Under the pieces are notes generated by a model. The model worked only from the letters and a program-made list of their open reading frames with translations. It was not told the origin of the DNA and searched no databases. A stretch of 9,284 bases of DNA, taken from a virus (lineage: Duplodnaviria; Heunggongvirae; Uroviricota; Caudoviricetes). The stretch lies in the IMG/VR virus record IMGVR_UViG_2778261085_000014, one strand, 5' to 3'. Positions 1,342 to 9,284 of the stretch are shown here, in pieces; position 1 is the first letter of the stretch; every line of letters begins with the position of its first letter. A program made the translations under genes and the position numbers.

Positions 1342-4185
1342 TCAATCTTTATCGTAAAAACTTCCACGCCCGGCACGGGCGCGCCGTTCCATTTCTGCCC
1401 TGACCATTTCACCGACCAGTTTCGCCAGTTCGCGGGGATTCTGCGTAACAACGTTATGCAGATGAACATGAATTTCACCGCCAAATCCGGAGGCAACAGG
1501 CTCCCGGTTACGGGAAGTTGCAGGAACTGATGCCACTGGCGATCGTATGGCCTCTGCCACCGGGCGGGAGCTGGCCGCAACAACAGGGACCAGCGCCGGA
1601 GGCAGCGGAGCCGGAACCACAGGTGTGATATTAATTGCGGGGGCAGGCTTACTGACCTGCGCAATCTTCCGCTCCTGCCACTCCCCACGAACAGCAAGTG
1701 CGCGGGGCAGGTTCTTAAAGACAATATCGCCGGGGCCAATGCGTTTTTTCGTCTCATCAACCAGCTTACCTGTGTTATCAGCAATTTTGCTGAGTCTGCG
1801 CAGCGTACCGGTATTGCTGTCTGTGAGCGGTTTATTGTCTTTGGAGTTATCACCTCCGGTGCCATTGCCATTTTCCACAGGCTTCGGCGGATTGATTTTC
1901 GCCAGGTCCCCCTGAAGCAAGGCAACCTTGTCCTGAAGAATGGCCGCACGCTGTGCGTCTTCGATTTTCTTGCGCGCCCTTTCCGCTTCATCCGGAAGGA
2001 CGCCAAGTTTTTCAAGTATCCACGCCAGCGTATCCAGCAGCATTTTGGCAGGTGTCAGAACAAGCTGTAACGCACCGCCAAGAACGTTACCGAATATCTC
2101 GCCAGCACTGGTACATTTATCCAGCGTTTCCTTGCTGGACTCCATCGGTGACAGCAGCGATTTAAACCAGTTAAACACCTGGCTGATCCCGCTCCCGATT
2201 GCGTCAAAAACAGGACCAAACCGTTCAAAGGTTTCGCGCAACGGGGCCAGCCTTTCCATAATCCCGCTGAACACCCCGGCAAAAAATGCCCTGATGGGAT
2301 CCCAGTATTTCCAGATAAGAACGGCAGCTCCGGCAAGCGCAGCCACGATAAGACCAACCGGACTGAACAACGCCCCGATAGCGCCTCCCAGCAAAGAAAC
2401 AGAACCCGCCACCATTCCCCACAGCGCAGGCAACACCCTGACGACATTCATTGACCGGGTAAGAATGTCAAAACCAAGACGCAGGGTGGCCAGCTTCCCG
2501 TAAAGCACCCCAATAACCAGCGACAACGAGCCAATCGTTGCAGTCATTGCCAGCAACGCACCGCCTGCTATCAGTAGCTGGCGCGTCAGTACCGGATGGG
2601 CCTGCGCCAGCGAGGTGATTTTTTCAAGCACCCGCGTGAGCCACTGCGTGACAGAACGCAGCGGACCGTCAACCAGATCACTGATGCGAATACGAAGACC
2701 TTCCCATGCGCTGTCGAGATTTTTCAGGTCCCCATCAAGATTATCGGCCATTACTTTTGCAACGCGATCGGCCTCTCCCCTTGCCCCCTGCAATTCTCTG
2801 GTCAGTTTTTGCAGCTCTCCTGAACCAGCCGCCGCAACAAGCGTCTGCAAACCAACGAACGCCTCTTCTCCGGCGATGTCCTTGAAGAAGGAGACCTGGT
2901 CCACCTGTCCGTATTTTTGTGTCGCCTTATAAAGATCAAGCAGCACATCCTCCATCGGGCGCATTTTGCCTCTGGCGTCAGCAACTGACACCCCCAGCTC
3001 TTTCAGTGCATCAGCCGCAGCTTTTGGCGGTGATGCAAGGCGGGACAGACTTGCGCGCATGGCCGTACCAGCATCGCTTCCGCGAAGACCATTATTGGCA
3101 AGCATCCCGGCCATGGCCGCCGCTTCTTCAAGACTGATACCAAGTTTTGCGGCAACCGGACCGGTATACTTCATGGTTTCGCCCAGCGCGCGTAAATCAG
3201 TATTGGTCCGGGTGAATACTGCTGTCAGCGTATCGCCAACCCGGTCCATTTGATCGGCTGTCAGGTTGAACTGTGTGAGGATATTGGAGCCTATATCAGC
3301 CGTCTCGCCGAGTTCGACGCCACCTGCCAGCGCCATATTAAGAACACCGGGCAATGCGGCCTGAATGGCCTGCGGAGTAAAACCAGCCATTGCCAGAAAA
3401 CTCTGCCCACTGGCGGCATCACTCGCAGTAAACTGTGTTTCAGAGCCAAGTTTTAACGCCTGCTCACGCAGCGCCTTAAACTGCGGGCTGTTTTTGTCGA
3501 TTCGCGTCAGTGCCTGAACGCGGGACATCTCTTTCCCGAACCCGATCGCGGGCTGCAAAAAACGTCCGGCAGCATAGCCGCCAGCCGCTGCCGCACCAAT
3601 TGCCAGCGCACCACCTGTTTTCAGTTTTCCCGCAGTTTCCTGCGCGCGCGAATACCGCTCACGCGCCCGCGTTACACGCGCAAGCGCCTGCCGTTCGCGT
3701 TCAAGCTGGTTGTTGTATTGTTCGGTGCGTCTGATGGCCTGCTGAATGGTGTTATCGCTGCCTGTCAGGGAAATGCCGTGGCGTTTCAGCTCTCCGCCAA
3801 GCTCCCGCATTTTCTGAATTTCCCGTGTGCGCGATTCATTCAGGCGTTCAAGCCGGGTGCTTAACTGCTGCATCAGCTTTTGTTGTTTTTCGCTGAGCAC
3901 TGTACCCGTGCGTTGTAACTGATTAAGGGCGTTAAGCTGGCGTCGTGCTTTCACGATACCCGCATCCGCTTTACTGACAGCGTCGCGGGCGCGCTCAAAT
4001 GAACGCGCCTGACGCTCGAGATTTTTGATCGCCCCCTGCGTTCGCTGGATGGAGTCACCAAACTGCCCCATCAGGCGGCGGGCGTTTTCGGCAGGCCGGG
4101 TCAGCCTGTCAACGGCGCTGAAAGCGACCCGGATATCAAGAGTCTTCATTGTCTGCATTCCCGCTGCGAAGTGCCGCCCGCTCAC
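1342..4185 (-). CDS. T: Tail tape measure protein, P2 gpT-like
   Basis: 947-aa ORF with a coiled-coil-like N-terminal region, a conserved tape-measure core (for example LTAVFTRTNTDLRALGETMKYTGPVAAKLGISLEEAAAMAGMLANNGLRGSDAGTAMRASLSRL), long hydrophobic Gly/Ala-rich segments and a Pro/Ala/Val-rich C-terminal stretch. Its start overlaps the E' frame as in P2. The start codon could be the internal Met at MQTMKT. Confidence 0.9.
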   Translation of the reverse strand: MSGRHFAAGMQTMKTLDIRVAFSAVDRLTRPAENARRLMGQFGDSIQRTQGAIKNLERQARSFERARDAVSKADAGIVKARRQLNALNQLQRTGTVLSEKQQKLMQQLSTRLERLNESRTREIQKMRELGGELKRHGISLTGSDNTIQQAIRRTEQYNNQLERERQALARVTRARERYSRAQETAGKLKTGGALAIGAAAAGGYAAGRFLQPAIGFGKEMSRVQALTRIDKNSPQFKALREQALKLGSETQFTASDAASGQSFLAMAGFTPQAIQAALPGVLNMALAGGVELGETADIGSNILTQFNLTADQMDRVGDTLTAVFTRTNTDLRALGETMKYTGPVAAKLGISLEEAAAMAGMLANNGLRGSDAGTAMRASLSRLASPPKAAADALKELGVSVADARGKMRPMEDVLLDLYKATQKYGQVDQVSFFKDIAGEEAFVGLQTLVAAAGSGELQKLTRELQGARGEADRVAKVMADNLDGDLKNLDSAWEGLRIRISDLVDGPLRSVTQWLTRVLEKITSLAQAHPVLTRQLLIAGGALLAMTATIGSLSLVIGVLYGKLATLRLGFDILTRSMNVVRVLPALWGMVAGSVSLLGGAIGALFSPVGLIVAALAGAAVLIWKYWDPIRAFFAGVFSGIMERLAPLRETFERFGPVFDAIGSGISQVFNWFKSLLSPMESSKETLDKCTSAGEIFGNVLGGALQLVLTPAKMLLDTLAWILEKLGVLPDEAERARKKIEDAQRAAILQDKVALLQGDLAKINPPKPVENGNGTGGDNSKDNKPLTDSNTGTLRRLSKIADNTGKLVDETKKRIGPGDIVFKNLPRALAVRGEWQERKIAQVSKPAPAINITPVVPAPLPPALVPVVAASSRPVAEAIRSPVASVPATSRNREPVASGFGGEIHVHLHNVVTQNPRELAKLVGEMVRAEMERRARAGRGSFYDKD

Positions 4186-4719: not shown

Positions 4720-5232
4720 TCAGCCAAGCCCGAGCGCAGAACGGATGCGATCGGGCACAATGTCCTTGCCGTCCTTCCGGTAAATGAAGTTCAGCAGGTC
4801 AATCTCCCACAACGGGCGATCGTTAACACTCAGCTTGTAGTAGGTGTTTTTAATGGCGTAAGTGTGTGATGTGGCTTCGCCCTGTTTGGCTTCCCCCATA
4901 TCAATTTCCGTCACACGTCCGCGCATTTCGACTTCATACAGGTCGCTTTCTGCATCGGTGTAATATTCACCCGCAAAACGCAGCAGCGTGCCATCAATCG
5001 TGCCGCCATACTTAAGGAACAGCTCACGAACTGCGCCCCCCATGACAAAGCTCGCATCAAGCGCGGAGTCGTCCAGACCGAGATCAATACTTACCGCACC
5101 CATCATGCCACCACCCCGGTAGCTGTCGGTTTTGCGCGTCAGCTTAGGCAGAGTGACGGACGTCACCTTACCCACTTCGTTTTCACCATCCACAAACAGC
5201 GTAAAAAAGCGAAGATGTTTTGGCACAGCCAT
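4720..5232 (-). CDS. FII: Contractile tail tube protein, P2 gpFII-like
   Basis: 170-aa ORF directly downstream of the sheath gene. Its start overlaps the sheath stop (minus strand TGATG at 5230-5234), suggesting translational coupling. Size and position match P2 FII. Confidence 0.9.
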   Translation of the reverse strand: MAVPKHLRFFTLFVDGENEVGKVTSVTLPKLTRKTDSYRGGGMMGAVSIDLGLDDSALDASFVMGGAVRELFLKYGGTIDGTLLRFAGEYYTDAESDLYEVEMRGRVTEIDMGEAKQGEATSHTYAIKNTYYKLSVNDRPLWEIDLLNFIYRKDGKDIVPDRIRSALGLG

Positions 5233-6416
5233 CAGGCACCTCCCAGCACCGCAAATGCGGGTTCAAAGTATTCATCAGTAAACGTCTGGTAAAGCTCCAT
5301 GTCTTCCAGTGGCGGAACGGGCGTATATTTGTAGCGAATACGCACACGTCCCTGACGTAAATCCGTGGTGCTGTTATCCACCACGTCATACCAGCACTCC
5401 GCGCCAATCAGTTTCCCGGCAGTCACCAGCGAATCCAGTTTTGCCCTGATGGCACTGATAACATCCTTCACGTTCGCAGGCGTCAGTGGACTGTCGATGG
5501 TTTCAAACTGCGCTTCCGCAATTGAATCAGCCAGCACCTGTGCGGTTCGGGTATACACCTCAAAGATGTAGGCGTTCGTTTCCGGTGTGCGGTTGCCCCA
5601 GAAGCGGAACCCGTTGCGACGAATAATGGTCGTGATTTCTTTGTTGTTAAGGCTGTTGGCATCACTGTCTTCGGCCTGCAACGACCAGAAAACATGCCTC
5701 GACATCCCCAGCACATTTTTAACCGGAACGTTGGACAGCGATTTGTGCCATCCCTGCTCATGGTCAATGTACGCACGAAGACCGCACGCATAGGCAGGCG
5801 CGGGGAACGTTTCGTTTTTGCCACTTTTCGGGTTGTAGGCGATGAAGTCCGGCCATAAGAGCATCACCTCACGTTCGTTGAATTTCTGGCGGTAGGTAAT
5901 CGCCGCAGCCATCGTGTTACAGCCGTGACATGAGGCATACACAAACGCGCGCAGTTTACCTGCAATCACGCACAGGGATTTTGTTACAGCCTCCGTGTCC
6001 AGCTCCGGCGCGGCCAGAATACGCGGACGGTATCCGATGCTTTCATCCTGCTCTGCAACAAGCAGCGCATACATCCCCGTATAGCTGCCGTCATCCTCAG
6101 AACCACCGATAACCAGTTGATCCTGCGTCTTTCCGTCTTCTTCTTTGTGTTCAGCCACGCGAACGACGATCACCTTTGTGCTCACCTGGTCTGCGATGGC
6201 CTTAAGCGCACGATAAAGCGTCCCCGTTGTCCCGCATTTTCCCAGCACGTCATTGACGCGGGTCAGCAGTGTGGGCTTGTTCAGCGGGAACAGCTTCGCG
6301 TCCGCATCATCCGCCGTTGCCACGATACCGATAACGCTGGAATCAACATCGTTAATCGCTGTTACCAGGTCGGTATTTTCCGTAACACGGGCACCATGAA
6401 AACGAGTTTCACTCAT
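5232..6416 (-). CDS. FI: Contractile tail sheath protein, P2 gpFI-like
   Basis: 394-aa ORF with AAGGGG SD upstream of the ATG on the minus strand. Size, position (first gene of the operon, followed by tube) and translation fit the tail sheath family. Confidence 0.9.
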   Translation of the reverse strand: MSETRFHGARVTENTDLVTAINDVDSSVIGIVATADDADAKLFPLNKPTLLTRVNDVLGKCGTTGTLYRALKAIADQVSTKVIVVRVAEHKEEDGKTQDQLVIGGSEDDGSYTGMYALLVAEQDESIGYRPRILAAPELDTEAVTKSLCVIAGKLRAFVYASCHGCNTMAAAITYRQKFNEREVMLLWPDFIAYNPKSGKNETFPAPAYACGLRAYIDHEQGWHKSLSNVPVKNVLGMSRHVFWSLQAEDSDANSLNNKEITTIIRRNGFRFWGNRTPETNAYIFEVYTRTAQVLADSIAEAQFETIDSPLTPANVKDVISAIRAKLDSLVTAGKLIGAECWYDVVDNSTTDLRQGRVRIRYKYTPVPPLEDMELYQTFTDEYFEPAFAVLGGA

Positions 6417-6573
6417 AGCTTCAGCCCCTTGTATCCGTTAAATGATTCGGCAACAATCATCACCCACCACGCGCGTAATCTCACCCCTGCGCCATTCTCC
6501 CGCCACGGCGACAACAAAAAGCAGTAACCCCCTCCGCACGTACATGCGACCATGCCACACAGGGAGGGAGCAG

Positions 6574-7683
6574 ATGACCGACACCACCATGCAATTGCTC
6601 AGTCAGGGCACAGACCCCGTAAAAATGCCGGATTTTGATATTCTCGCGGAGGGTAAAACGCTGTCAGGCGTGGCAGAGCGCCTGATGAGCCTGTCACTGA
6701 CCGACAACCGGGGATTTGAGGCAGACCAGCTCACCATCACGCTGGATGATGCGGATGGTCAGTTGCAGCTACCGCCACGGGGCGCACGCCTGACGGTTCT
6801 CATTGGCTGGAAAGGCGAACCGCTGACAGAAAAAGGCACTTACATTGTTGATGAAATCGCTCACGAAGGACCACCGGACAGGCTGACTGTTTCAGCCAGA
6901 AGCGCAGATTTTCGGGATGAATTTAACGTTAAACGAGAGGTGTCCTGGCATGATGTGACCGTTGAGCGTGTGGTATCCGCCATCGCTCATCGGTACGGTC
7001 TGAAACCGCAAATCAGCGAAATGCTGATGGATATCGAAATCGACCACGCCGACCAGACCGAAGAAAGCGACATGTCCTTCCTTACGCGCATGGCGGAAAT
7101 GCTGGGCGCAATCACCACGGTAAAAAGCGGCAATCTGTTATTCATCATGCCAGGTGGTGGCGTGAACGCGCAGGGCCAGCCGTTGCCCTCGTTCGCCATT
7201 ACACGCAGCAGCGGCGATCGCCATCAGTTCCGCATTGCTGACCGCGAAGCGTATACGGGGGTACGCGCTTACTGGCTTGATCTTAATTACGGGAAAAAGA
7301 AAAAAGTCAGCGTGAAACGCCGCAAACCGCCAAAACCCAAAAAGGAGAAAAGCAGCAGCCGTGAAGGTGATTATATGGAAGGCGCGGAAGGCAATGTGTT
7401 TGTGTTACGCAAGACTTATCAGAACGAGCAGGCAGCAAGACGCGCAGCGGCGGCAAAGTGGCAGCAGCTACAACGCGGAGCCGCATCATTCTCCATCACA
7501 CTGGCACGCGGACGCGCAGAACTCTACCCCGAAATGCATGGCACGGTAACAGGATTTAAAAGCGAGATTGATAATCAGGACTGGATTATTGCAAAAGCCG
7601 AGCACACCATTGATAACAGTGGCTTTACCACGCAGCTTGAGCTTGAAGCCAAAATCCCGGAATGGATAGCAGAAACAGAGTAA
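6574..7683 (+). CDS. D: Phage late control gene D protein (gpD, Mu gpP-like tail/baseplate protein)
   Basis: Translation contains blocks typical of the gpD family (RLMSLSLTDNRGFEADQLTITLDDADGQ, SARSADFR, SWHD) and a Lys-rich linker. Start chosen at ATG 6574, which has an AGGGAGGG SD 5 nt upstream; the ORF track's 6442 is just the first in-frame ATG. Confidence 0.85.
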   Translation: MTDTTMQLLSQGTDPVKMPDFDILAEGKTLSGVAERLMSLSLTDNRGFEADQLTITLDDADGQLQLPPRGARLTVLIGWKGEPLTEKGTYIVDEIAHEGPPDRLTVSARSADFRDEFNVKREVSWHDVTVERVVSAIAHRYGLKPQISEMLMDIEIDHADQTEESDMSFLTRMAEMLGAITTVKSGNLLFIMPGGGVNAQGQPLPSFAITRSSGDRHQFRIADREAYTGVRAYWLDLNYGKKKKVSVKRRKPPKPKKEKSSSREGDYMEGAEGNVFVLRKTYQNEQAARRAAAAKWQQLQRGAASFSITLARGRAELYPEMHGTVTGFKSEIDNQDWIIAKAEHTIDNSGFTTQLELEAKIPEWIAETE

Positions 7684-7877
7684 ACAACTTAGATGCATTA
7701 GCCCTGACATTTGCTAACGCGCTTACAGCAAGAATCATAACCAATCTGACAGCCTACCCGGTGTCAAAATCAGAAGAGCCTTACATTAGAATATGTTAAT
7801 TTGTAGCAAACAAATTTACACACAAATGATTACTGCTGAAATAGCCCCCATAAATGCTATGTCAAAGGATCCATGTT

Positions 7878-8543
7878 ATGAATATGCAAATTTTTATCGC
7901 ACCAGCAGCCACAGTTGCTGCAGTCTGCCTTGCTGCATATTTTGCTTTACGAAATGAACGTAAAAAGAAAGCACTTGAGATTAGAACAACTCAACTAGAT
8001 CGAATATCTGAGCTAGTAAACCGAGCATCTACCAATTTGATGCAATATACAGGTACTCTTGCCTCTATACTGGAAGCGCACGCCAAAGATAATTATCTAC
8101 CGAACAAAAAATTTGACATTAATGTAATTAGCAAATGGAAAGATTGCCTCGATGAGAGTGAGGTCTGGGCGATTGATATACAGCAACTAAGAACATGTCA
8201 GCACAGTCTGGAGTTTCATCGTGAAAAAGAATGGGCTGAATGGAAAAAAATAATTCCACCATTACTTGATAAAATTAACCAATTTTTTCTCATATCTAAG
8301 CCAGGGCAACCTGTTACGTTTATAAATGGCCAAAACAAAACAGCTGATGAACTACTTGTTTTCTCAAGATATTTGAGAAAACAAACAGCAGAAATTGAAT
8401 CAGTACGTCAGCTGTTACTTTCTCAAATGAGAGAGGAATTCATCGAGTTAACTAGCTTTGAACCTGTCACAATGTTTAGCTTATTTAAATCAATAAAGAA
8501 AAATGTCATGCAATTTTTCTGTATCAGTGCTCTTAAAAATTGA
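7878..8543 (+). CDS. Hypothetical membrane-anchored protein with no recognised family; AT-rich cargo gene inserted between D and ogr
   Basis: Uninterrupted 221-codon frame from ATG 7878, with SD-like AAAGGA at 7864-7869 (8-nt spacer). N-terminal hydrophobic helix IFIAPAATVAAVCLAAYFAL followed by a basic stretch, then a charged soluble domain of about 190 aa. Markedly AT-rich versus flanking D and ogr, and followed by its own terminator. Confidence 0.65.
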   Translation: MNMQIFIAPAATVAAVCLAAYFALRNERKKKALEIRTTQLDRISELVNRASTNLMQYTGTLASILEAHAKDNYLPNKKFDINVISKWKDCLDESEVWAIDIQQLRTCQHSLEFHREKEWAEWKKIIPPLLDKINQFFLISKPGQPVTFINGQNKTADELLVFSRYLRKQTAEIESVRQLLLSQMREEFIELTSFEPVTMFSLFKSIKKNVMQFFCISALKN

Positions 8544-8558
8544 CGCTCTGTTGCAAGC

Positions 8559-8589
8559 AACCCCAGTGTTAAACTGGGGTTATTCTTGC
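8559..8589 (+). terminator. Rho-independent terminator-like hairpin after the AT-rich gene: stem AACCCCAGT / ACTGGGGTT, loop GTTAA, then ATTCTTGC
   Basis: Perfect 9-bp inverted repeat at 8559-8567 / 8573-8581, 16 nt after the stop codon, followed by a T-rich tail. Confidence 0.55.
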
Positions 8590-8633
8590 TAAGAGACCTT
8601 TCTACGGCATCAGTAAACAAAACGAACTATCAG

Positions 8634-8662
8634 TTGGAGTCTGAGCAAGTTCAGCCTAAACT
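8634..8662 (+). promoter_or_regulatory. Candidate sigma70-type promoter for ogr: -35 TTGGAG, 17-bp spacer, -10 TAAACT
   Basis: Hexamers at 8634-8639 and 8657-8662 with 17-bp spacing, about 30 nt upstream of the ogr SD. ogr is insulated from upstream transcription by the terminator at 8559-8589, so it needs its own promoter. Weak, sequence-only call. Confidence 0.25.
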
Positions 8663-8692: not shown

Positions 8693-8953
8693 ATGTTCCG
8701 TTGTCCGCTTTGTGGCGCATCTGCCCGTATCCGCACCAGTCGTCCGGAAAATGATTCAAACACCGTGCGGCAAAAGTATTACCAGTGTAACAACCTGGAA
8801 TGCGGCGTATGCTTCTCAACACTGGAAGCTTTCCATAAATTCACATCGAAACACGCCTCCGGCATCTACTCTTCAGAAGGTATCCCGTGGCATGAGCTGC
8901 CAGCTTCACACAGGGGAAACAATCAGATGAGCTTGCCTTTACCTCAGAATTAA
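8693..8953 (+). CDS. ogr: Ogr/Delta-family zinc-finger late transcription activator
   Basis: 86-aa ORF starting MFRCPLCGASARIRTSR...YYQCNNLECGVCF, with the Cys-x2-Cys ... Cys-x4-Cys arrangement and N-terminal MF-CPLC signature of P2 Ogr. Strong SD AAGGGAGG 5 nt before the ATG. Confidence 0.85.
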   Translation: MFRCPLCGASARIRTSRPENDSNTVRQKYYQCNNLECGVCFSTLEAFHKFTSKHASGIYSSEGIPWHELPASHRGNNQMSLPLPQN

Positions 8954-9013
8954 CAGGCAGAATTGCCGGAGTAACAAAAAAGCGATAGATTACGCGCGGG
9001 TGCCTTTCGGCTG

Positions 9014-9226
9014 ATGGTCGGAGGGAATACCCGAAGGCCAGATGTGGAAAGGCCCCGGAAAACATCTCTGTTTAACCGAGGCCCTAACCGCATTACCTTG
9101 ACAAGTGAAAGGTTAGCGCCTCTCCGGAAAAGGAGCAAGTGCTATGTCGCAAAAATCGCTTACGGCCATCACGTTCTGCGTGACGGCAATCCTCATCATC
9201 TGGATGTTGCACGGTTCGCTGTGTGA
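9014..9226 (+). CDS. mok-like reading frame overlapping the hok-like toxin gene; true start uncertain
   Basis: 70-codon frame beginning about 130 nt upstream of the hok-like ATG and ending inside it in a different frame, mirroring the mok/hok overlap of plasmid R1 hok/sok. Called from architecture only. Confidence 0.25.
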   Translation: MVGGNTRRPDVERPRKTSLFNRGPNRITLTSERLAPLRKRSKCYVAKIAYGHHVLRDGNPHHLDVARFAV

Positions 9227-9284
9227 AATACGGATGAGCTTCTGGGGAGCGGAGTTTGCGGCGTTCTTACAGTGTAAGCAGTAA
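9144..9284 (+). CDS. Hok/Gef-family type I toxin (small membrane-depolarising peptide)
   Basis: Manual translation gives the 46-aa peptide MSQKSLTAITFCVTAILIIWMLHGSLCEIRMSFWGAEFAAFLQCKQ. It has an N-terminal transmembrane helix followed by the SLCEIR and E-x-AAF motifs characteristic of Hok/Gef peptides. AAGGAG SD 8 nt upstream. The stop TAA is the last codon of the window. Too short for the supplied ORF track. Confidence 0.65.
   Translation: MSQKSLTAITFCVTAILIIWMLHGSLCEIRMSFWGAEFAAFLQCKQ

Follow-up and report, generated by a model that had tools for sequence, protein, structure and literature searches.

Why should a lone AT-rich gene sit between D and ogr, two core genes that are normally adjacent in P2-like phages? 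The question was raised by a stretch of 9,284 nucleotides from the viral record IMGVR_UViG_2778261085_000014 (hereafter the window, meaning the whole of the DNA that was analysed), in which a 221-aa open reading frame (ORF) at this junction had been singled out, from the letters alone, as a candidate superinfection-exclusion or anti-phage gene in a P2 backbone (the original prediction). The backbone proved to be P88-like instead: the window is the tail/late-control end of a P88-like prophage (genus Xuanwuvirus, Peduoviridae, P2 family), a prophage that in E. coli genomes is integrated beside ihfA, and its gene D lies on the plus strand and FI-FII-E-T-U on the minus strand, the same divergence as in phage P88. 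The premise that D and ogr are ordinarily neighbours carries over to this lineage, with 41 nt between the D stop codon and the ogr ATG in P88; the window holds ~970 extra bases there. We identify this feature as a self-contained accessory ("moron") cassette in a D-ogr cargo hotspot of the P88-like prophage. That its product shields the lysogen from other phages is the reading we tentatively favour.

Alignment with P88 and with phage 520873 delimited the insert, relative to the empty P88 junction, as an AT-rich single-gene cassette at 7693-8662. The existence of an AT-rich island had been recognised correctly; its proposed limits of 7684-8590 had to be corrected, the right end lying ~70 nt further on, almost at the ogr Shine-Dalgarno sequence. 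The insert is also compositionally foreign, as supposed, with a GC content of 0.37 (0.36 in the ORF, where GC at third codon positions, GC3, is 0.28) against about 0.54 in the flanks: GC and GC3 are 0.54 and 0.58 in D and 0.54 and 0.61 in FI, and across D, FI and T they span 0.54-0.56 and 0.57-0.61. The conserved left flank is D itself (~6574-7683, plus strand; Pfam Phage_GPD, E = 4e-17), encoding the baseplate hub/late control protein and 96-98% identical to D of E. coli P88-like prophages, and the conserved right flank is ogr (8693-8953, plus strand), encoding a late-gene activator with an Ogr/Delta zinc finger (Pfam Ogr_Delta, E = 5e-14; PHROG 603).

The ORF, taken from the ORF list at 7878-8543 (plus strand, stop codon included) and corresponding to the RefSeq hypothetical protein WP_001057121.1, is a real protein-coding gene under purifying selection. 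As had been claimed, it is single and has its own Shine-Dalgarno sequence, AAGGA at 7865-7869 on the plus strand, which we read 8 nt before the ATG and whose Kluyvera equivalent, GAGGA, is conserved. An alternative in-frame ATG at 7854 lacks a Shine-Dalgarno sequence and is closed off by a stop codon in the Kluyvera homologue. A length of 221 codons was reached in 1 of 2000 Markov shuffles of the insert (null 70±20 codons), and the ratio of nonsynonymous to synonymous substitution rates (dN/dS) was 0.33 and 0.25 against homologues of 86% and 74% amino-acid identity, at dS up to 0.65. The reading frame is intact and collinear across Escherichia, Kluyvera, Klebsiella, Citrobacter and Salmonella. 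A literature search on the accession WP_001057121 returned no match.

We next asked how the slot itself is occupied elsewhere. Among 5426 complete E. coli genomes, 54 have a full-length copy of the cassette in the slot. In ~775 genomes the two flanks lie within joining distance of each other, and in a spread sample most of these junctions were empty. The gene is thus far from being present in essentially all related prophages, and the junction is variable: between flanks conserved at 92-99% we saw at least eight other contents. These include a 500-aa PIN-domain protein, 384-aa and 340-aa proteins of no assigned kind, a DUF3800 protein, a restriction-endonuclease fragment with the insertion sequence (IS) IS1, and a 201-aa protein (WP_000069998.1; L005 2253-2858, O157:H7 strain FRIK2069) that matches neither Pfam nor PADLOC; this last we considered as a variant of the window gene and rejected, as the two are unrelated (24% spurious identity). 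In strain HSP60, a SIR2+HerA pair lies exactly between D and ogr (PADLOC E = 2.5e-155 and 4.1e-181). The D-ogr slot is therefore a variable cargo locus that elsewhere houses a known defence system. In this it resembles the hotspots of P2-like prophages, old/tin (gpA-gpQ) and Z/fun, where AT-rich accessory genes lie between conserved core genes and where the cargo varies among near-identical prophages, includes known defence systems and is swapped faster than the backbone diverges (PMC9122126, PMC13586616). It differs from them in its position between D and ogr in a P88-like lineage and in usually holding one gene and being empty in most genomes. The main papers on P2 hotspots describe the gpA-gpQ and Z/fun loci, and the terms "ogr" and "gpD" are absent from them (PMC9122126, PMC13586616); only a 2024 preprint mentions a third hotspot "between a tail protein and CI".

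The gene moves as a ~970-bp single-gene unit between unrelated mobile elements. The ORF of the window is 100% identical at the DNA level to that of enteropathogenic E. coli (EPEC) E2348/69, and D, T and E-FII of the same two prophages differ by 3.5%, 10% and 11%; because the ORF is identical while these genes have diverged, the cassette must move independently of the backbone. Over its full length the cassette is 99.8-99.9% identical to the copies in E2348/69 and AR_0119, against a backbone that differs by up to 10%. The E. coli copies occupy the same D-ogr slot and fall into two alleles ~7.4% apart in insert DNA and 8.7% apart in the ORF. In Kluyvera, a 966-bp version occurs in two places, 99.4% identical to each other: one in a lambdoid prophage, between the replication genes and Q, and the other in an integrase island, behind a 1207-aa helicase gene and near a TIR gene. 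The lambdoid copy (L008 4077-5652) adjoins a gene for a 408-aa colicin-like protein with a Colicin domain (PF01024), beside which a small gene on the opposite strand may encode immunity.

In every context examined, family members were lone genes on mobile elements or in defence islands, and their neighbours varied from one context to the next without any conserved partner gene. A copy in Pseudescherichia lies in a chromosomal island beside cysH, together with SMODS+S_4TM (a minimal cyclic-oligonucleotide-based antiphage signalling system, CBASS) and an nSTAND ATPase; on Klebsiella plasmids the gene is found among KAP NTPase, TIR+YuaX, SMODS+S_4TM and RES genes; Citrobacter has a copy in a lambdoid-type prophage; and an island resembling an integrative and conjugative element (ICE) has one next to hipA. 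Distant family members thus stand beside CBASS, TIR, KAP NTPase and nSTAND genes in defence islands.

Possible expression signals flank the ORF. DNA homology to the Kluyvera cassettes starts at 7736 or 7781 and stops at 8550, and within it an upstream block at 7781-7815 (plus strand) aligns almost without change between the E. coli and Kluyvera copies, making it a candidate promoter/operator. Hand-picked promoter candidates upstream of the ORF were weak and not conserved in Kluyvera. An imperfect direct repeat, GAATATGTTAATTTGTA at 7789-7805 and GAATATGCAAATTTTTA at 7880-7896, has its first copy inside the invariant block and its second, 91 nt away, overlapping the start codon; the repeat may represent paired operator sites or have arisen by chance in AT-rich DNA. 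Just past the stop codon, a terminator-like match and RNA folding identify a stable hairpin at 8546-8595 (plus strand; core stem 8559-8581), with a fold energy of -26.7 kcal/mol (z = -6.2), which may be a terminator or an RNA-stabilising structure. The hairpin thus confirms the structural half of an earlier claim of a terminator at 8559-8589; termination itself is plausible at most, because the U-tract is poor and partly paired within the extended stem.

A third segment, at the right end of the insert (8618-8662, plus strand), emerged from comparison of the flanks. These ~45 nt just upstream of the ogr ribosome-binding site are common to the compared cargo-bearing D-ogr junctions whatever their cargo, and empty junctions lack them (the empty E. 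coli junctions cover only the two flanks); accordingly, homology of the right flank begins at 8618-8633 against the cargo loci L005, L006 and L007 and at about 8663 against P88. The segment contains a weak promoter-like pair, TTGGAG (8634) and, after 17 nt, TAAACT (8657), the latter replaced by TAGAAT in the other cargo loci, which could drive ogr. The suggestion that ogr has a promoter of its own therefore has a weak candidate at 8634-8662, which a consensus scan did not flag. A MAFFT alignment hinted that the right end of the cassette was a diverged duplicate of the D 3' end; we rejected this, as local alignments within each of seven loci gave similarity to the D 3' end no higher than shuffled controls.

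How widespread is the protein? A word-indexed search of 5.8 billion proteins returned seven clusters, confined to Escherichia and Kluyvera. Exhaustive scanning of 1.8 billion representatives with HMMER gave 23 matches and a profile search 30 clusters, which puts the family at about 25-30 clusters, every one in Enterobacterales. The named members are all "hypothetical" proteins of Enterobacterales (Klebsiella, Citrobacter, Salmonella, Pseudescherichia, Kluyvera), and tblastn added copies on Erwinia, Pantoea and Winslowiella plasmids. The family is rare, with one member in 50,697 deposited phage records and six in 72,556 plasmids. The absence of a motif assignable to a known family, noted at the outset, was borne out in Pfam, PADLOC, PHROGs and NCBIfam, and searches by family, PDB and fold gave no match to a core phage protein. 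In PADLOC-DB 2.0 the best hit of the window protein had E = 0.023, and one of 16 diverse members had any match (E = 0.006); PHROGs matched neither the window protein nor 16 relatives, so that no described exclusion family there is homologous. A fold search of BFVD gave a best match of E = 0.1, and Foldseek found nothing significant, including among the sensor bundles of chemoreceptors and histidine kinases. The protein family is thus absent from all the libraries searched; as an orphan gene carried as hotspot cargo by a prophage, it is otherwise of an ordinary kind with many examples.

The one N-terminal transmembrane helix that had been proposed is predicted here as well. Residues 4-24 (7887-7949, plus strand) are the only hydrophobic stretch, with Kyte-Doolittle values up to 2.1, and are preceded by the uncharged MNM and followed by RNERKKK. 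As the positive charges follow the helix, the positive-inside rule predicts an N-out, C-in orientation that leaves a very short N-terminus outside and places ~195 residues in the cytoplasm. AlphaFold, run on a 24-sequence alignment (predicted local distance difference test score, pLDDT, 80.6; predicted template-modelling score, pTM, 0.66; superseding a first run on five near-identical sequences, pLDDT 62), modelled a continuous helix of residues 3-71, which includes the transmembrane segment and extends beyond the membrane as part of an elongated antiparallel helical bundle. Helices 81-93, 101-114, 116-137 and 156-192 make up the rest of the bundle in the model, with a lower-confidence helix 199-219 at the end.

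Across the family, P9, A20, L24, K30, K31, H114 and W122 are invariant, and conservation peaks in the transmembrane helix and the juxtamembrane motif LRNExRKKxLE (codons 24-34), where column entropy is lowest. This strong conservation suggests a key contact in or at the membrane, whether of the protein with itself or with a conserved membrane component of the host or the phage. Within the bundle, conservation is limited to an FHR motif around H114. Three other assignments were examined and rejected: a HEPN-type Rx4-6H motif (H114 is invariant, but few members have the arginine 6 residues upstream of it, where the window protein has Q); a lipoprotein or cleavable signal peptide (the N-region lacks positive charge, no lipobox is present, and most relatives have W in place of the cysteine); and the four-helix-bundle sensors of chemoreceptors and histidine kinases (Tar/Tsr, NarX/NarQ, TorS, QseE), to which identity was 3-13% and for which designed bundles scored equally well. 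Sensor domains of the Tar/Tsr type moreover lie in the periplasm, ahead of a second transmembrane helix and an output domain, both absent in the window protein.

What, then, might such a protein do? To call it a candidate anti-phage or exclusion gene, as in the original prediction, is reasonable because the slot is variable and elsewhere holds SIR2-HerA and because relatives lie in defence islands; strictly phage-specific exclusion is the part that finds no support. From this context, we tentatively favour the reading that the lysogen makes the protein and that, unaided, it blocks infections by other phages or causes them to abort, working on the cytoplasmic side of the inner membrane. Transcription in the lysogen would start in the gene's own upstream region and would not depend on the late operons, and the predicted single-helix protein would insert into the inner membrane with its helical bundle at the cytoplasmic face. 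There it would act alone against other phages, and possibly against other incoming elements. It would hinder genome entry or some early step associated with the membrane, or else it would detect a phage product and bring about abortive infection at the membrane.

By analogy, the closest comparison would be a membrane-anchored single-protein abortive-infection or exclusion factor, not an enzyme. Lactococcal AbiP is an abortive-infection factor of this description, likewise a lone gene on a mobile element whose product has an N-terminal transmembrane anchor, its bulk in the cytoplasm and no recognisable enzymatic domain; the likeness drawn here is one of architecture, and the hosts of the window family are Gram-negative Enterobacterales. 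Superinfection-exclusion proteins such as P22 SieA, T4 Imm, HK97 gp15 and lactococcal Sie2009 are similarly small, prophage-borne membrane proteins, encoded by morons of narrow taxonomic range and free of catalytic motifs, and the predicted helix at residues 4-24 would make the window protein a prophage-encoded membrane protein too. Such morons carry their own expression signals; the cassette has a Shine-Dalgarno sequence, a downstream hairpin and a conserved upstream block, but no convincing promoter emerged. Unlike these proteins, the window protein has no PHROG or other homology to them and a large domain predicted to be cytoplasmic, and its family is found also on plasmids, ICE-like conjugative elements and chromosomal islands, a spread uncommon among phage-specific exclusion proteins. 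Another comparison is with the membrane protein Kunado (YmfE), by which prophage e14 protects against T5-like phages, AT-rich prophage cargo that includes such membrane-protein defences being a documented class (doi 10.64898/2026.09.05.749240). The window gene is likewise AT-rich prophage cargo for a membrane protein without a known domain, possibly silenced by H-NS (control of the cassette by H-NS is our conjecture from its 36% GC); YmfE is described as having predicted membrane-spanning regions, whereas the window protein has a single N-terminal helix.

A larger claim is possible, if doubtful: that the 221-aa protein founds a new family of single-protein, membrane-anchored immunity genes against phages and other mobile genetic elements, carried by a ~1-kb cassette that circulates among P2-like and lambdoid prophages, plasmids, ICE-like elements and defence islands of Enterobacterales, and that D-ogr is a third defence hotspot of the P2 family. 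On this view, the repeated placement of one subfamily just upstream of minimal CBASS (SMODS+S_4TM) might mean that two membrane-acting immune modules are functionally linked. Should the protein prove protective, it would represent a domain-less, membrane-tethered defence family missed completely by current annotation tools, at a new cargo site in P88-like prophages, which are very common in E. coli, EPEC and the O55/O157 lineages among them, and a small cassette with a lone gene would be an easy system in which to study an enzyme-less block of infection at the inner membrane. Should it have no anti-phage activity, it would be a clean mobile orphan gene shared by phages, plasmids and ICEs, of unexplained selective value.

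Several observations weigh against a protective role. Neither the window protein nor 16-24 relatives had a significant match in Pfam, NCBIfam, PHROGs or PADLOC, a sequence-profile search of the PDB gave only chance helical matches (E >= 0.2), and a consensus sigma-70 scan upstream of the ORF found no site. Guilt by association in hotspots is weak, and such sites also carry partition systems, toxins and virulence genes (PMC9122126). Copies on Klebsiella and Citrobacter plasmids directly follow Rep3 or parAB, and in an ICE-like conjugative element of Salmonella one is flanked by traC and traU; these lend no support to strictly phage-specific exclusion, and the large domain, cytoplasmic in the predicted topology, would not fit classical exclusion proteins, which face the periplasm. 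The gene may also be dispensable, as suggested by IS insertions in or beside the cassette in some strains and by the sole deposited phage copy (520873), which is broken by indels, mostly in homopolymer runs, that could be sequencing errors. Finally, the predicted fold is a generic helical bundle and uninformative on activity.

Such a bundle might also be read as a modulator of the host envelope or of signalling, docking for example on a histidine kinase, chemoreceptor or transporter, so that the gene would serve lysogenic conversion of a non-defensive kind with a benefit to fitness or virulence. Virulence genes do occur in these hotspots; on the other side stand the SIR2-HerA occupant of the slot and the relatives in defence islands, and we regard this explanation as unlikely.

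The plasmid and ICE copies raise a different possibility, that the gene is an accessory for maintenance or replication of mobile elements, tethering replicating or partitioning DNA to the membrane or excluding related plasmids and ICEs. The gene is directly downstream of Rep3 in the Klebsiella plasmids (gaps of ~200 nt), directly downstream of parA and a 101-aa gene in a Citrobacter plasmid, behind a replication-type gene in a lambdoid prophage and within the conjugation genes of the Salmonella element. However, regions adjacent to rep and par are also common sites of cargo insertion, the window copy lies between a tail gene and a late activator, far from replication functions, most P88-like prophages do without the gene, and the family also occurs in a chromosomal defence island without a replicon. 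On balance, we find a maintenance role improbable.

We give similarly little credence to a role as modulator or anti-defence factor for membrane-acting immune effectors, controlling or neutralising, for instance, the S_4TM-type effectors of CBASS. At two loci (L016 7001-10199 in Pseudescherichia and L020 7001-10233 on Klebsiella plasmids), SMODS+S_4TM is preceded, ~520-570 nt upstream and on the same strand, by a distant family member. Between these loci the ORF is 76% identical in DNA and the CBASS genes 86%; because the ORF is the more diverged, an older linkage with CBASS is suggested, not one recent transfer. The strong conservation of the transmembrane and juxtamembrane region also speaks for this reading. 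Yet CBASS is present in only 2 of ~12 distinct contexts and absent from the window and its closest relatives, and the long intergenic gaps (>500 nt) argue against a shared operon. We likewise rejected the gene as a CBASS accessory gene, for which consistent co-occurrence in an operon would be expected; adjacency to SMODS+S_4TM was seen in 2 of ~12 contexts.

Least probable is a decaying, functionless passenger hitch-hiking with the cassette, as the rarity of the family, the IS insertions and the disrupted 520873 copy (whose indels are possibly sequencing errors) might suggest, since dN/dS of 0.25-0.33 at dS up to 0.65 and a reading frame intact and collinear across five genera, with invariant residues, stand against it.

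The remainder of the window is a mosaic prophage backbone. On the minus strand lie U (841-1335), the tape-measure gene T (1342-4185), E/E', FII (4720-5232) and FI (5232-6416). Identity to AR_0119 and E2348/69 is only 90% in T and 96-98% in FI and D; in E-FII it is 99% with one of the strains and 89% with the other. RefSeq annotates D in L001 (11240-12084) and L004-L007 in a form shortened to ~800 nt, with an overlapping 93-nt minus-strand pseudogene; D is intact at ~1.1 kb in the window (in the region of about 6442-7683), in P88 and in L012, where it is called as a 369-aa gene, and the shortened annotation is probably an artefact.

A second AT-rich cargo (GC 0.33) occupies 85-744 on the plus strand, between the tail-fibre genes and gpU, where P88 and E2348/69 have a DNA invertase. 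It is the 3' part of a gene for a heptosyltransferase-like glycosyltransferase of family 9 (GT9), which may be a conversion gene modifying lipopolysaccharide, truncated here by an IS. The window begins within a multicopy IS, of which positions 1-84 are the end; an E. coli genome can have as many as 35 copies of these 84 bases, both chromosomal and plasmid-borne, and their minus strand matches Rfam STnc490 (77 bits; gathering score 56), which we take to be the IS200 tnpA leader. As homology to the intact GT9 gene of strain AR_0119 begins only at base 85, the IS appears to interrupt that gene.

At the other end, beyond ogr, the plus strand of 8977-9284 carries a hok/sok-type toxin-antitoxin module, with an ORF for a Hok-family toxin at 9144-9284 and a sok-like RNA match at 8998-9157 (48 bits, below the gathering score of 59); this region is 83% identical to sequence found in many Stx-converting phages.

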